From Candidatus Nomurabacteria bacterium (GTDB lineage: Bacteria > Patescibacteriota > Minisyncoccia > Phycocordibacterales > UBA5272): a stretch of DNA of 60,505 nt. The notes under the pieces were generated by a model, which was not told the origin of the DNA, did not search any database, and saw only the letters and a list, made by a program, of their open reading frames with translations. Of this stretch, positions 23,497-32,709 are shown in pieces (within the stretch, counting starts at the first letter, position 1; the number at the start of each line of letters is the position of its first letter). The position numbers and the translations under genes are program-made. The stretch lies in the NCBI GenBank assembly GCA_037134695.1, contig JBAXLU010000002.1, positions 1 through 60,505 on the forward strand, read 5' to 3'.

Positions 23497-23625
23497 ATAG
23501 CTAACAGCTTACTGTCAACAGTTTACAGAAAATACAAAAGCAGTGCCTACGGCACTATTTCTTGTGTTTACTAAACGCTACAGGCTGTACGCTAAACGCT
23601 GCCCCACGTGTTAAACTAAGTTTCT

Positions 23626-24405
23626 ATGGAAAATAATTACGATTTTAAAAAGTTTACTTTTATTAGTGGTGGGGTTGCTCTTATTACAATTGCATTACTC
23701 GCAATCGTTATGAGCTTATCTGAGTGGAAGACTATGAGTCGCGGAGGATCTAACTCTGCATCTATTACAGTTTCAGGTGTTGGAGAAATAACAGCCGCAC
23801 CGGATATTGCAACTGTTAATTTCACAATACGTGAAAGTGCCAAGACAGTACCTGAGGCTCAAAAGTTAGCTGAAGCAAAAATGGTAAAGGCACTTTCTTC
23901 ACTTTCTGCATTAGGGATTGATAAAAAAGATACAAAGACAGTTTCTTATACAGTAAATCCAAAATATGAGTCACAGGCAACTTATTGTACAAATGGATAT
24001 TGTCCAGTTGGTAAAACAACCATAACTGGTTATGAAATAAGTGAATCAGTACAAGTTAAAGTTAGAAAAATTGAAAAAGCAGGAGATGTGTTAGGCGCAT
24101 TAGGTGCAATTAATATTACAGAAATAAGTGGCCCAGAATTTACAGTTGATGATATTAATAAAGCAAACGCTGATGCAAAGGCAAAAGCAATTGCTGACGC
24201 TCGCTCCAAAGCAAAAGCTACAGCAGACGCGCTCGGTGTATCACTCGGGTCTATTACTCAATACTCCGAAGATAATGGTGGATATTATCCAGTTGCCTAT
24301 GGAATGGGTGCTTCAATGAAAAGTCAGGCAATGGATTCAGTTTCTGTTCCAACAGGGGAAAGTGTAATCAAGGCACATGTTTCTGTTACATACAGCGTGA
24401 ACTAG
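23626..24405 (+). CDS. SIMPL/DUF541-family periplasmic protein
   Basis: N-terminal TM, ITVSGVGEITAAPDIATVNFTI and overall SIMPL-like pattern. Confidence 0.7.
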   Translation: MENNYDFKKFTFISGGVALITIALLAIVMSLSEWKTMSRGGSNSASITVSGVGEITAAPDIATVNFTIRESAKTVPEAQKLAEAKMVKALSSLSALGIDKKDTKTVSYTVNPKYESQATYCTNGYCPVGKTTITGYEISESVQVKVRKIEKAGDVLGALGAINITEISGPEFTVDDINKANADAKAKAIADARSKAKATADALGVSLGSITQYSEDNGGYYPVAYGMGASMKSQAMDSVSVPTGESVIKAHVSVTYSVN

Positions 24406-24513
24406 TTCGACGAGCGAGAGCGAGGAAGATACTGAGCACAACAGTACGAAGTGTTAGAAGTTAGGGGTTAGAAGATAATACAGAGACCAGAAGACAGATA
24501 GCAGAAAATACAC

Positions 24514-24541
24514 AAAAACGGCACCTTCGGTGCCGTTTTTG
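24514..24541 (+). terminator. Intrinsic terminator (UUCG tetraloop)
   Basis: AAAAACGGCACC-ttcg-GGTGCCGTTTTT. Confidence 0.85.
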
Positions 24542-24573
24542 CCTTGTAAAATAAGGAATTTTGGTGATTTATA

Positions 24574-24602
24574 TTGACTTTTAGTCCAAAATGTGCTATT
24601 CT
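24574..24602 (+). promoter_or_regulatory. Sigma-70-like promoter of the GC-rich cassette
   Basis: TTGACT (24574-24579), 17 nt spacer, TATTCT (24597-24602). Confidence 0.5.
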
Positions 24603-24635
24603 GTATCAGATAATCGTTCTTTTACAGTTTTTGAT

Positions 24636-24703
24636 GTTTACCATAGCTTCAAGCTTTAATTCCTTCTCAAACTTTGAGAAAAAGGTTTGAAGCTATGGTA
24701 AAC
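24636..24703 (+). promoter_or_regulatory. 68-nt near-perfect palindromic leader hairpin
   Basis: GTTTACCATAGCTTCAA (24636-24652) pairs with TTGAAGCTATGGTAAAC (24687-24703). The stem extends through wobble pairs and is capped by the inner hairpin TTCTCAA-act-TTGAGAA. Confidence 0.6.
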
Positions 24704-24780
24704 AAACTTTCGTTTGAGCCCTCTAGCATGGTAAAGCTACGCTTCTGTGCGTGGTTAGCCAAATTTCAGGAGTTATACAA

Positions 24781-25398
24781 ATGAACAAGCCTTCACAAGG
24801 TCAGGTTCTCAACGCAATCGCCATTTTGATGAATAATGCGGATTGGGGGGCTATAAGTAGCACCAGTTTGCAAAGCTTTATCGACAATCCTCGCGCCGCA
24901 GGGTCACAGTTTACTGCTTTCCTAAAATACGGAGGTGTCGAACAGCCCAAGGTGGTTGTCCATATTGACCGCACCTCTGCTTTCGACCCCGTCGCCTTCA
25001 TCGGCGAAGGCTGGTCGTTTGCCGAAGCACGCAACCCGCGTTCGGCTGCCCTCGGCCTTCTCGATTATTACAGCAAGGTGAAGCTGTCGACGGACTGGCT
25101 GGAAGGCAAGTCGAGTGTCGACGGCGAAACCCGGCGTACGCGAATTCTCGTCGATACCGCAAGCACCCCGCTCAACGCCGACCATTTTCTCGACCTCTGG
25201 AACAACAAAGAAAAGATTCCCGAGGAATGGAAGAAGGTCAAGGGTGTGATCACCTTCGATGGTGATGTCCTTCGGGACTCGCGCGGTGACCGTTACATCC
25301 TGTGCTTGTACTGGAGCGATGGCCGGTGGTCCTGGTACGGCCATTGGCTCGGCCGCAAGTGGCACGCTGCCTACCCGTCTGCCGTTCTGGCAAGTTAG
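24781..25398 (+). CDS. Orphan GC-rich hypothetical protein (205 aa), no family recognised
   Basis: AGGAG (24768-24772) lies 8 nt before ATG 24781. Long open frame in DNA of about 60% G+C. The ORF-track GTG start at 24751 is less likely. Confidence 0.65.
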   Translation: MNKPSQGQVLNAIAILMNNADWGAISSTSLQSFIDNPRAAGSQFTAFLKYGGVEQPKVVVHIDRTSAFDPVAFIGEGWSFAEARNPRSAALGLLDYYSKVKLSTDWLEGKSSVDGETRRTRILVDTASTPLNADHFLDLWNNKEKIPEEWKKVKGVITFDGDVLRDSRGDRYILCLYWSDGRWSWYGHWLGRKWHAAYPSAVLAS

Positions 25399-25623
25399 AA
25401 CTTCGGATTAGTTCACTTAGGTCTTTTAGACCCTTTGACCTTAGTCCTTGAAGCCGATTGGTGCCGTCGGTAACTGCGCTGGCATGGATGACGCCAGTAA
25501 TGTTTACATCGGCCAGCCGGTGCAAAACAAAATACTGGCGGCGGCCATTGCCAAGAACAAATCTTTGTTCTCAAACGGCAATCTGACTGCCGGCAACGCC
25601 AAGAAGTGACAAATGTAGCCACC

Positions 25624-25679
25624 AACCCGCCCCATTGGAGACCCGCAAGCGTCTCCATATGTGAGCGGGTTTTCTTTTT
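25624..25679 (+). terminator. Nested-hairpin intrinsic terminator inside the GC-rich cassette
   Basis: Outer stem AACCCGC (25624-30)/GCGGGTT (25665-71), inner hairpin TGGAGAC/GTCTCCA, then TTTTCTTTTT. Confidence 0.65.
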
Positions 25680-25922
25680 GTATTTAAACCAAACCCCAGT
25701 TTTACATTTTGAAAACCGCCACGGAGCGTGGTAGCGAGTGAGAACGAATTCTCTAGCTTGCCACGGCCAGCCGGCGTGGCAAGAAAAGGACACGGCTTTT
25801 TAAAATGAAAGATAAAAATAAAAAGAAATTTTGAATGATTAGGATTATGTTTTCTTATTTCTATGATCCAGCTACACACAGTGTTGCTGGGTCAAATTTT
25901 GCTATTTGGCCCACAGCAAAAT

Positions 25923-25951
25923 TTGACTTATATAACTAGTTAATGTAATAT
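25923..25951 (+). promoter_or_regulatory. Candidate secE-nusG promoter
   Basis: TTGACT (25923-28), 17 nt spacer, TAATAT (25946-51). The -35 box lies inside the right arm of a 13-bp inverted repeat. Confidence 0.5.
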
Positions 25952-26026
25952 ACAAAGTAACAAATGCCCGCGGGGGTGTTTTTTAGAATAAAGGCTTCAA
26001 ATTAGCCAAAACAAACTAATAACATT

Positions 26027-26209
26027 ATGAATCTATTCACTTATTTTAAGGAAACAAAAGCAGAACTTAAACAAGTTACTTTTCCTAAAACTTCACAAAC
26101 AATAAATTACACAATACTAGTTGTTGTTATATCTATTGTAGTTGCTCTTGTATTAGGAGGAGTCGACTTAGGTTTCAAGACAGTATTAGCAAAGCTTCTC
26201 GCTCGCTAG
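26027..26209 (+). CDS. secE: Preprotein translocase subunit SecE
   Basis: 60 aa, KAELKQVTFP followed by a single TM helix, located upstream of nusG. Confidence 0.9.
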   Translation: MNLFTYFKETKAELKQVTFPKTSQTINYTILVVVISIVVALVLGGVDLGFKTVLAKLLAR

Positions 26210-26229
26210 TATTCTGAATTTCTATTAAC

Positions 26230-26261
26230 TTCCGCCAGAGGCGGATCCGCCTCTGGCGGAA
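26230..26261. repeat. 32-nt perfect palindrome between secE and nusG
   Basis: TTCCGCCAGAGGCGGA|TCCGCCTCTGGCGGAA. Each half also contains its own CCGCC-nnn-GGCGG hairpin. Confidence 0.8.
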
Positions 26262-26280
26262 AAAACTAACATCTAAATCT

Positions 26281-26826
26281 ATGGCTAAACAAGAATTCAC
26301 CGGAGAGCGTCATTGGTATGCAATCCATACATATAGTGGTTACGAAAACGCAGTACAGCGTAATTTAAAACAGCGCATTGAATCTCTTCAAATGGAAGAT
26401 AAGATTTTTGATGTAGTTGTTCCAATTGAAAAGAAAATTAAAGTTAAAGGAACTAAGCGTGTAGAAGTTGAAGAAAAGGTCTATCCTGGATACATTCTAG
26501 TAGATATGATTGTGGACGATAATAGTTGGTATGTTGTTCGTAATACACCCCGCGTTACAGGCTTCGTTGGTGCTGGTACTACACCTGTTCCACTTTCACA
26601 AAAAGAAATTGATTATCTTTTGAATAAAATGAAATCCGGTGAAGTCGAACATGAGATAGTGGTAGAAGTAGGGGAATTAGTTTCTATTATCGATGGTCCA
26701 TTTAAGGAATTCGAAGGAAAGGTTAGCGAGGTAGATAAGTCACGTGGGAAGTTGAAGGTGTTGGTGAATATGTTTGGGCGCGAGACTCCTGTCGAACTTG
26801 ATTTTTTGCAGGTAAAGAAGATCTAA
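26281..26826 (+). CDS. nusG: Transcription termination/antitermination factor NusG
   Basis: [17 protein letters not shown] start and a C-terminal KOW domain ([10 protein letters not shown]). Confidence 0.95.
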
Positions 26827-26933
26827 AAATTACTTCATCTACTTCGTTGTGGGTCCCGCTGGCTCGCTACACCGTACACCTGAGTACGTTTTCGCTCGCC
26901 AGCTCCCCACGCCTTGTATCTAAAGCAATTTTT
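26825..26933. repeat. ~110-nt hairpin-forming intergenic element, copy 1 (MITE/REP-like)
   Basis: Ends AAAAATTACTTCATCTAC ... GTATCTAAAGCAATTTTT are inverted repeats and match the ends of 57103-57216. The interior is itself palindromic but differs in sequence. Confidence 0.6.
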
Positions 26934-27057
26934 GAAATCTTCTTTTCTCAAGTTCCGAATTATTACTTAATTAACAATTGTTAAATTACATAACCTGACT
27001 AAAACGCTAATCTTGAAATGAAGATAAAAACGTGTTAGAATAACCAGACTTTAAATT

Positions 27058-27468
27058 ATGGCAAAGAAAATTACAAAATACGTGAAAGTTCAGATTGAGG
27101 CAGCAAAGGCAACCCCTGCTCCTCCACTTGGTCCTGCCCTAGGACAGGCTGGTGTTCAGATTGGGGATTTCGTTAATAAATTTAACGCTGCAACTCAAGG
27201 AAAGCAAGGAAGAATGACAGTAAAAATCTATGTTTACGAAGATCGTACATATGATTTCGTTATCAAGACTCCAACTGCTACATCTTTGGTTATGAAGTCA
27301 GCTAATGTTGCAAAAGGTAACTCAAAAGGCGGCGCTGGAACAATTTCAAAAGAAAAAGTTCGTGAAATTGCAGAAATTAAGTTAAAAGACTTAACAGCTC
27401 ATACAGTTGAACAAGCTATGAAGATCATAGAAGGAACAGCTAGAAGTATTGGAATAAAAGTTAGTTAA
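27058..27468 (+). CDS. rplK: 50S ribosomal protein L11
   Basis: PAPPLGPALGQAGV and full-length L11 pattern. Confidence 0.95.
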   Translation: MAKKITKYVKVQIEAAKATPAPPLGPALGQAGVQIGDFVNKFNAATQGKQGRMTVKIYVYEDRTYDFVIKTPTATSLVMKSANVAKGNSKGGAGTISKEKVREIAEIKLKDLTAHTVEQAMKIIEGTARSIGIKVS

Positions 27469-27480
27469 TTTAATTAACAC

Positions 27481-27508
27481 AAAAAACCACCCGTTAGGGT
27501 GGTTTTTT
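27481..27508 (+). terminator. Intrinsic terminator after rplK
   Basis: AAAAAACCACCC-gtta-GGGTGGTTTTTT. Confidence 0.85.
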
Positions 27509-32674: not shown

Positions 32675-32709
32675 ATACAATGGCGGCCACGAAGTGGCCG
32701 CCATTGTAT
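32675..32709. terminator. Bidirectional terminator between dut and folD (16-bp stem)
   Basis: ATACAATGGCGGCCAC-gaa-GTGGCCGCCATTGTAT. Confidence 0.8.

Follow-up and report, generated by a model that had tools for sequence, protein, structure and literature searches.

A GC-rich intergenic tail in a Candidatus Nomurabacteria genome: probable mosaic of a retroelement target remnant, a gene stump, a terminator and a branched-hairpin repeat

Orphan targets of diversity-generating retroelements (DGRs) are common in genomes of the candidate phyla radiation (CPR). In phage BPP-1, a hairpin lying 4-34 bp downstream of the variable repeat (VR) is needed for DGR homing, and such a hairpin has been described as a general feature of these systems (Guo et al., 2011, PMC3240598). 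Here, we analyse a 60,505-nt stretch of Candidatus Nomurabacteria DNA (contig JBAXLU010000002.1 of GenBank assembly GCA_037134695.1, positions 1 to 60,505, forward strand), hereafter the window, in which a GC-rich tail of ~400 nt (25399-25800) follows the open reading frame (ORF) of a DGR target gene. Like the known DGR target sites, such as the VR, initiation of mutagenic homing (IMH) site and hairpin of mtd in BPP-1, TvpA of Treponema and the DGRs of CPR and DPANN genomes, the locus carries a VR at the 3' end of a gene for a putatively C-type-lectin-like protein, adenine-specific differences from template repeats (TRs) and a conserved sequence directly after the VR; its relatives also have a GC hairpin with a 4-nt loop and modules of TR, Avd and reverse transcriptase (RT). 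With a probability of roughly 0.6, the tail is a mosaic of four parts laid end to end, namely a DGR target remnant, a gene stump, a terminator and a copy of a folded repeat.

For the last of these parts the closest described systems are short dispersed repeats. Like the REP/REPIN, ERIC, Correia, RUP/BOX and Rickettsia palindromic elements, it is a non-coding, multi-copy sequence of ~130 nt whose copy number is very variable between relatives; its copies are likewise intergenic, often lie by terminators, form a long hairpin and occur in nested or tandem forms. It also recalls group IIC introns, whose insertion after intrinsic terminators is discussed in PMC3240598, in that its copies lie preferentially a few bases past a terminator hairpin and T-run. 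Similarly, it has three helices around conserved unpaired nucleotides in dispersed copies, as do small multi-copy structured RNAs such as self-cleaving ribozymes. A preliminary description of the tail had proposed a possible RNA gene and/or a micro-ORF. The last ~150 nt (25678-25832) indeed have an RNA-type fold with covariation, whereas neither a single 400-nt unit nor a peptide gene has stood up to the present analysis.

The DGR target gene and its cut 3' flank

The window is contig C2 of a 0.72-Mb genome (G000; 96% complete, ~33% G+C; genomes, contigs, loci and proteins are given as G, C, L and P numbers). The tail lies in the slot between a DUF541/SIMPL gene (23626-24405) and secE-nusG-rplK (from 26027), and it forms the 3' end of a ~1-kb island of 50-63% G+C whose onset is ~600 nt upstream of the tail, within the 215-aa ORF of the target gene. 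The previously described rise in G+C was confirmed, with values of 0.44-0.56 in 100-nt windows over 25400-25800 compared with ~0.33 for the whole window. An independent Logan contig from the probable source sequencing run equals 24600-25781 with zero differences, and because it bridges this stretch the internal junctions are not an artefact or chimera of the metagenome assembly. Repeat depth climbs from 95 to 444 in the Logan contig data; the source-run data consist of contigs only, from which VR variants are not expected.

Homologues of the 215-aa ORF (n = 91) carry no Pfam domain in any case, and one of them, the 82% identical P0002, has bAvd and RVT_1 genes just downstream on its contig. 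At four related loci, a second copy of the final ~126 nt of the gene lies 400-550 nt further downstream as a TR, and the differences between VR and TR are confined to TR adenines at 17/17, 15/15, 17/17 and 16/18 positions, a pattern that reads as the signature of a DGR. When the VR of the window is set against the TRs of three relatives, mismatches fall at 24/38, 19/32 and 19/30 adenines as against 8/92, 10/94 and 9/100 other bases; judged by its sequence, it is a former DGR target. Much of the G+C of the island is accounted for because only 12% of the VR is adenine. Furthermore, RT genes adjoin such loci in G001:C7, G030:C17, G010:C1 and G003:C53, and complete DGRs with target, TR and RT (with Avd too at L058) stand at the relatives' loci L058, L009, L011, L014 and L023. 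Half of the genus genomes (26 of 52) carry an RVT_1 gene. Searches of the G000 assembly (96% complete) gave no matches to RVT_1 (PF00078) or bAvd (PF22296) and found no TR-like copy, so that, for this assembly, the window gene is an orphaned and frozen DGR target.

The AlphaFold2 (AF2) model of the 215-aa ORF has a predicted local distance difference test (pLDDT) score >90 for residues 80-215. In VIA-align, residues 101-215 of the model match mainly C-type-lectin-like domains, including TvpA (2y3c), at a weak Z of 3.5-5.1. A Foldseek search of the model against the PDB returned weak rows alone (E >= 0.14), and a PDB sequence-profile search with the ORF family gave no match. The modelled C-terminal domain of the target protein weakly resembles C-type-lectin-like domains.

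The first 52 nt of the tail had been taken for a host-like stutter spacer, that is, for filler, but the same sequence is conserved after homologous genes in at least ten other genomes or contigs. It was found after the VRs of G007, G001, G010, G018, G030, G025, G028 and G042 and of two metagenome contigs, and not after TRs. When 60 relatives were searched at the DNA level, matches to 25376-25450 came from many genus genomes, always directly 3' of homologues of the 215-aa ORF. The segment itself folds weakly (z = -2.4). In the relatives it runs directly into GTCCCGCRYGG-TACT-CCRYGCGGGAC, an 11-bp GC stem with a 4-nt loop and compensating R/Y changes, followed by a T-run. This hairpin stands where other DGRs have their target-recognition hairpin, and it doubles as a terminator. 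The window leaves the arrangement of its relatives at 25451 (alignment A6), and the GC hairpin is absent.

Compared with described DGR target sites, the locus is unusual in that the G000 assembly is without hairpin, TR, Avd and RT. In addition, the spacer between VR and hairpin in the window's lineage is ~55 nt long and sequence-conserved as opposed to the reported 4-34 bp, and the hairpin loop there is TACT as opposed to GRNA. Some of this speaks against the DGR reading. The loop TACT does not fit the GRNA consensus of phage DGRs (PMC3240598), and a role of the post-VR segment in DGR targeting is suggested by its position and conservation only. Moreover, TR and RT could sit in the ~4% of the genome that is unassembled, as repeats break assemblies.

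The gene stump and its terminator

Both the 41-codon ATG ORF (25484..25609) reported earlier and its TTG-extended form of 53 aa (25448..25609) are present in the tail, and inspection of the sequence agreed that the shorter one has no Shine-Dalgarno sequence. It had also been called the only open frame, but minus-strand frames of 126 and 102 aa, both spurious-looking, cross the region as well. In a phmmer search of 1.84 billion representatives, the 53-aa frame matched P0093, P0094, P0098, P0096, P0101 and P0097 with 52-58% identity (E 1e-6 to 1e-3), and all matches fall on the C-termini of the partner proteins. These belong to a family of ~150 aa with an N-terminal signal-like segment, a Cys-containing middle and no Pfam domain, of which the window is without the first two. 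The stump matches positions 100-153 of the 154 positions of its profile, a self-match that is partly by construction as the profile includes the window's own sequence as a row. The homology begins right at the junction at 25451, where the conserved DGR segment ends, and in-frame stop codons lie upstream. The ~150-aa family was not found in the 52 genomes of the genus, and no DNA match to 25451-25609 was found among the 60 relatives.

The frame could nevertheless be a real small-protein gene of 41 or 53 codons: it is open, ends 15 nt before the terminator and keeps the most conserved motif of the parent family, YIGxPxQN...GNLTA..AKK. Such a gene would, however, be missing the signal peptide and Cys-rich two-thirds of its parent family, would have no Shine-Dalgarno sequence by inspection and no promoter-like site within 25399-25484, and was not found in the 52 genus genomes. 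Homology also reaches upstream of the ATG to 25451, which fits a truncated frame and not a frame with its own start. A small-protein gene is very improbable on this evidence, and the region is better read, at the level of sequence, as a gene stump. The preliminary description had itself named a decayed fragment of a protein gene as the case that would overturn its micro-ORF, and the frame does align to the C-terminal ~52 residues of ~150-aa proteins.

The nested terminator that follows the stump was borne out by folding (-25.8 kcal/mol, z = -5.0). It escapes a simple terminator scan, for which its loop is too large, and it probably belonged to the truncated gene. At the same place, G034:C48 has CCCGC-loop-GCGGG-TTTTCTTTTTGTATTT, with the 3' arm and T-run in common with the window. 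A T-run with a GTATTT tail is generic in G000, where TGTAT lies within 22 nt at 131 of 446 terminator-like sites (e.g. C1:15863, C1:67713 and window positions 32703 and 50339); it has the look of a terminator tail peculiar to this lineage, or of a signal for re-initiation.

The simplest history that we infer for this arrangement is a single event. The DGR hairpin, TR, Avd and RT would have been lost at the window locus, with the arrangement cut at 25451, and one deletion or recombination would have fused the tail of the DGR target to the last ~52 codons of an unrelated neighbouring gene for a secreted protein of ~150 aa, together with its terminator, while the 5' two-thirds of that gene were removed. 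The outcome would be a frozen VR and a dead gene stump, the latter being the micro-ORF.

Raised G+C and several hairpins are also what one structured RNA gene spanning the whole ~400-nt tail would give. Against this, 25399-25450 recurs only after DGR VRs, 25451-25609 is protein-coding by homology and 25678-25832 recurs alone at other loci, while in G034 the same locus shows terminator and repeat but neither of the first two segments. With a strong terminator in mid-stretch and no Rfam match, a single RNA gene is barely credible. High G+C had been taken as the mark of one structured RNA, but it has several separate sources: the adenine-depleted VR nearby, the foreign gene fragment, the terminator, a GC-rich core motif and a nested GC mini-repeat. 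The coordinates of the parts are given in Table 1.

Table 1. Features of the tail and of the gene before it, as assigned from sequence (positions in the window).
Feature	Position	Strand	Remarks
DGR variable (target) protein ORF, 215 aa	24751..25398	+	Likely true start gives 205 aa
VR of the DGR target gene	25264..25397	+	12% A, 64% G+C
Conserved post-VR segment (52 nt), truncated	25399..25450	+	72-95% identical after VRs of relatives
Putative gene stump (pseudogene fragment), C-terminal third of a ~150-aa secreted protein family	25451..25609	+	Holds the micro-ORF 25484-25609
Intrinsic terminator, nested hairpin then TTTTCTTTTT	25624..25679	+	Starts 15 nt past TGA 25607-09
Copy of the ~131-nt branched-hairpin repeat	25678..25832	+	Covariance model R1, 95.7 bits, E 1.7e-15
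Folded body of the window copy	25699..25813	+	Minimum free energy -42.3 kcal/mol, z = -4.1
Nested GC-rich palindromic mini-repeat in the P3 apical loop	25757..25783	.	Holds the second GGCCAGCCGG; absent in other copies except G028:C27

The branched-hairpin repeat and its copies

The common fold of the repeat family consists of a 16-bp closing helix (P1), a helix P2 (3+3 bp, internal loop GGA/GA, loop GGGUA) and a helix P3 of 11 bp that has a bulged A and an AGCA loop, after which comes an A-rich tail. The unpaired positions, namely CGGAG, GGGUA, CGAG, the AGCA loop and the bulged A, are near-invariant. The window copy is a variant of this fold. Three hairpins had been described in it, CCACG-gag-CGTGG (25719-31), GAGAA-cgaa-TTCTC (25740-53) and CTTGCCACG...CGTGGCAAG (25757-83); they are real, but the 20-bp P1 (25699-25718 with 25793-25813) that encloses all three had been missed. 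P2 is shortened by one base pair on both sides, which leaves the CCACG/CGTGG hairpin, the 5' strand of P3 is degenerate, which leaves the GAGAA/TTCTC hairpin, and a GC-rich palindrome of 23-27 nt is inserted in the P3 loop.

The fold is carried by covariation. A hand-built alignment (A2; 10 copies from 7 genomes) is 92.1% paired compared with 77% when shuffled, with compensated changes at 21 of 33 pairs. Among 36 copies from the genus, 95.1% of cells are paired (69% shuffled, 45-57% in slid controls) and 30/33 pairs are compensated; 21 copies from 14 other genera reach 99.0% (65% shuffled) with 31/33 pairs compensated. Over the three alignments, slid controls are 42-57% paired. The genus and other-genera alignments were fitted to the covariance model, and the hand-built A2 gives the same pattern. 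Copies in the same genome diverge by true double substitutions and remain paired, and the arms of P1 vary at nearly every position. Base pairs are 92.6% Watson-Crick and 2.5% G-U.

Two checks suggested earlier, an Rfam scan and covariation analysis on homologues, were carried out. Even with permissive E-values, the covariance models of Rfam 15 gave no relevant match in 23500-27500 (E <= 10) or at 8 better-copy loci (E <= 5), and ARAGORN found nothing relevant on the window; this agrees with the earlier description, in which RNase P, SRP domain IV and tRNA signatures had been looked for and not found. Covariation is very strong for the family of 25678-25832. By the pairing pattern of its sequences, this stretch is an uncatalogued structured nucleic-acid element.

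Several further features were considered for the element and set aside. A candidate pseudoknot of ACCC in the 5' flank with GGGU in the P2 loop, which would resemble the loop-flank pairing of self-cleaving ribozyme classes, could form with at least 4 bp in 17/36 copies and varies by wobble only, with no compensatory change; unlike those classes, the element has no covariance-model match to Rfam ribozymes. An outer helix P0 between the T-run/5' flank and the A-rich tail, which are complementary in the window (UUUCUUUUU at 25671-79 with AAAAAGAAA at 25817-25), is not favoured by the genus copies, where matched flanks give -6.96 kcal/mol and mismatched flanks -7.09 kcal/mol. The strand of action is not decided by the count of G-U against A-C, which is 29 to 18 on the + strand. 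A kink-turn or hammerhead reading of the P2 loop was rejected, as P2b covaries as Watson-Crick and CUGANGA-like strings occur in few copies and in the variable loop only. The idea of a type I toxin failed on the minus-strand ORFs, which on inspection differ between the window and C1 copies and include no conserved ORF. Finally, the 5' motif TTGTATTTAAA does not serve as the element's own promoter: it is the generic terminator tail, and its TG abuts the hexamer without extended -10 spacing.

The palindrome in the P3 loop belongs to a mini-repeat of its own (CCTGCCTCGCCGGCAAGGCGGG, 22 nt), which has four further copies in G000 (C1:15900, C7:11837, C30:3845 and C3:28091); the window insert differs from its core by 1 mismatch on the minus strand. 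G028:C27 carries CTGCCTCGCCGGCAAGGCGGGC at the same loop position in opposite orientation, so that the mini-repeat is nested in the P3 loop of two independent copies of the element (the window copy and L018 ~257-278 in G028). It also bears on the 10-mer GGCCAGCCGG, which had been reported as duplicated at 25511 and 25764. There are indeed two sites, the first at 25511, but the second is at 25765. The first is part of the gene stump (codons IGQPV), the second of the loop of the nested mini-repeat. The expectation for the 10-mer is 0.03 in shuffles of the whole AT-rich window, which understates chance in GC-rich DNA; no functional link between the two copies was found, and a templated origin or chance are both possible.

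Parts of 25678-25832 recur on C1 and C3, and with the covariance model 6 copies of the element are found in G000. The element is present in 41 of 52 genus genomes, with 1-13 copies each, and absent from the other 11, two of which are 100% complete. Beyond the genus, 27 of 150 genomes from the order have it; these represent 26 of 131 genera and hold as many as 20 copies each. The core pattern was matched exactly 10 times in viral contigs, and the covariance model recognised the element at none of these sites. Many copies begin at the T-run of a terminator or within a few bases of it. Their upstream neighbours are all different, mostly small ORFs without a Pfam domain that are often GC-enriched, and one is another DGR target. 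Downstream, by contrast with this variety, the neighbours are recurrent housekeeping genes, each with its own consensus promoter, including those for DEAD-box helicase, rpsA, rpsB, secE-nusG, rpoB and HU. Occupancy of a site is unstable: 5' of the DEAD-box helicase gene, the element is present in 14 of 30 genomes and not in 16, with different subtypes at the site, and a tree of 45 copies tracks neither locus nor genome.

C3 and G034 hold truncated copies as well as nested and tandem ones. Composite copies (L003 1510-1730 = G000:C3:27665-27885; L012 1140-890 = G034:C48) consist of a 5' half-element, the spacer GGATTGAAATAATTTTT and a further copy, joined at the core; in the C3 composite the outer 5' arm pairs with the 3' arm of the inner copy. 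Such forms suggest that the core is where recombination or template switching took place. Of 21 copies from other genera, 5-6 (L123, L124, L127, L130 and L132) have GAGCGA-like direct repeats on both sides of the folded core, which abuts a long minus-strand frame; either a target-site duplication or a conserved site of insertion could account for these flanks.

Two of the sites have features of their own. The DEAD-box helicase gene has a near-consensus promoter, TTGACA-N14-TGCTATAAT, in ~30 genus genomes (L073-L102; G000:C3:28226-28430), and its conserved leader of ~170 nt (ATTATTTCCTTATGGATATC...GTAGTCAGG...) has no Rfam match and could be cis-regulatory. Between an oxidoreductase gene and the C1 copy of the element, G000:C1:48898-49050 (L002 1245-1400) holds a TAGAAT box, a mini-frame (MPMVK) with a Shine-Dalgarno sequence and ATG, and a terminator of its own.

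The slot that holds the window copy, between the SIMPL gene and secE, is itself a hot spot of gene turnover. In G034 the syntenic slot has another ORF of 81 aa, and the 3' arm of the terminator and all downstream sequence are common with the window; in G028 the slot has a DGR target with its TR. The stretch directly after the SIMPL gene (24403-24450) recurs at G000 C13:8758 and C22:2460 and in relatives, and a 14-bp bidirectional terminator-like hairpin lies at 24512-24542. Upstream of secE, a promoter scan found TTGACT-17-TAATAT at 25923-25951, and the sequence 5' of the gene (25945-25994, GGGTGTTTTTTAGAATAAAGG...) is at least 90% conserved in most genus genomes, above the surrounding coding regions.

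Dispersed repeat or functional RNA

For the element as a family, we give about an even chance to a non-autonomous, structure-dependent dispersed repeat with fast turnover, a reading that is not exclusive with a functional RNA. It is favoured because of the patchy copy number, the site turnover, the tree, the composite forms, the mini-repeat nested in its loop, the adjacency to terminators and the varied upstream neighbours. The element would be copied or recombined into gaps just after intrinsic terminators and upstream of the promoters of housekeeping genes. Whatever copies or binds the element may recognise it by its conserved tip, and any transcript of it would fold as a structured RNA. Mobility, and the nature of the machinery that would do the copying, are conjectural parts of this account.

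Several results weigh against it. The repeat shows no correlation with a transposase, a recombinase or an RT. Y1_Tnp (PF01797) has no match in G000 (5-6 copies), G029 (11), G023 (6) and G102 (6), and the element was not found beside Y1 genes. Similarly, RVT_1 is absent from G000, G029, G032 and G011, and copy number does not go with the presence of an RT. Comparison of G023 (filled) with G096 (empty), the sole pair in which both flanks are conserved, showed no target-site duplication. Within a genome the copies diverge from one another and each is almost perfectly paired, as would also be expected if a functional RNA were under selection at each site. Lastly, orientation is biased: in co-directional gaps 19 copies run with the flanking genes and 6 against them, and convergent gaps hold no copies.

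The same results set the element apart from the known classes. In REP/REPIN-type repeats the terminal inverted repeats are conserved, whereas here the unpaired tip is conserved and the stems are not, and the copies, although divergent within a genome, are 95-99% paired. Unlike REP/REPIN with RAYT and the miniature elements derived from IS200/IS605, no RAYT/Y1 or other transposase co-occurs with it. Unlike miniature inverted-repeat transposable elements of the ERIC, Correia and RUP type, it is without terminal inverted repeats of conserved sequence, nor did the genus show a target-site duplication. It differs from group IIC introns in being only 131 nt long, without intron domains or an Rfam intron match; retro-mobility through an RT, by analogy with the hairpin targeting of DGRs and group IIC introns, was rejected as RT does not follow its copy number. 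For integron attC sites the comparison covered the core motif and the arrangement of copies: inspection found no GTTRRRY core at the element's ends, and the copies are single over many contigs and form no arrays.

The element might instead be a true functional non-coding RNA family, acting in cis or trans, with each copy kept by selection, for example as a protein-binding or an insulator/processing module; site turnover would then be the gain and loss of regulatory modules and not selfish spread. The pairing of 95-99%, with 30-31 of 33 pairs compensated across 14 genera, would suit this, as would the almost invariant unpaired CGGAG, GGGUA, CGAG, AGCA loop and bulged A and the paralogues in one genome that differ by double substitutions and are still paired. 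So would the 19:6 orientation bias with neighbouring genes, the recurrence 5' of the DEAD-box helicase, rpsA, rpsB, secE-nusG, rpoB and HU genes, and the slight excess of G-U over A-C on the + strand (29 vs 18). However, the element has no conserved promoter of its own, and its 5' TTGTATTT is the generic terminator tail (131/446 sites) without proper -10 spacing. A TTGACA-17-TAxAAT promoter between the element and the downstream gene places it outside the leader of that gene. The element is also absent from 11/52 genus genomes and from ~80% of the sampled genera of the order, its tree does not follow locus, and six high-scoring copies are antisense to both neighbours. On balance, a family of functional RNAs maintained at each site is rather unlikely. 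We hold as similarly doubtful that the element is a new class of functional structured RNA conserved through an order of CPR bacteria, protein-binding or self-processing, that is mobile or mobile-like and homes after terminators, with the tip and the AGCA loop as its putative core.

A role of the element as DNA, neither mobile nor transcribed, is improbable. In such a role, a cruciform or a single-stranded structure 5' of strongly transcribed genes would serve as a supercoil sink or as a signal in replication or recombination. Its place between a terminator and a strong promoter would suit such a role, and with 92.6% Watson-Crick and 2.5% G-U pairs both strands could fold. A cruciform, however, has no need of asymmetric conserved unpaired motifs and a bulged A, and patchy distribution and site turnover are a misfit for a core chromosomal signal.

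To summarize, the compositional oddity of the tail can be explained without a new RNA gene, an adenine-depleted VR and a foreign gene stump being enough to give GC-rich DNA. The locus documents how a DGR decays: a diversified VR and its post-VR segment persist after the loss of hairpin, template and enzymes, which is useful for the annotation of "orphan" DGR targets. The element, in turn, combines unusually clean covariation with a patchy presence over at least 27 genera and up to 20 copies in genomes of 0.8 Mb. A paired structure in every copy in such streamlined genomes needs explaining, whether as fast-turnover mobile DNA or as functional RNA, and a covariance model is now available for metatranscriptome tests.

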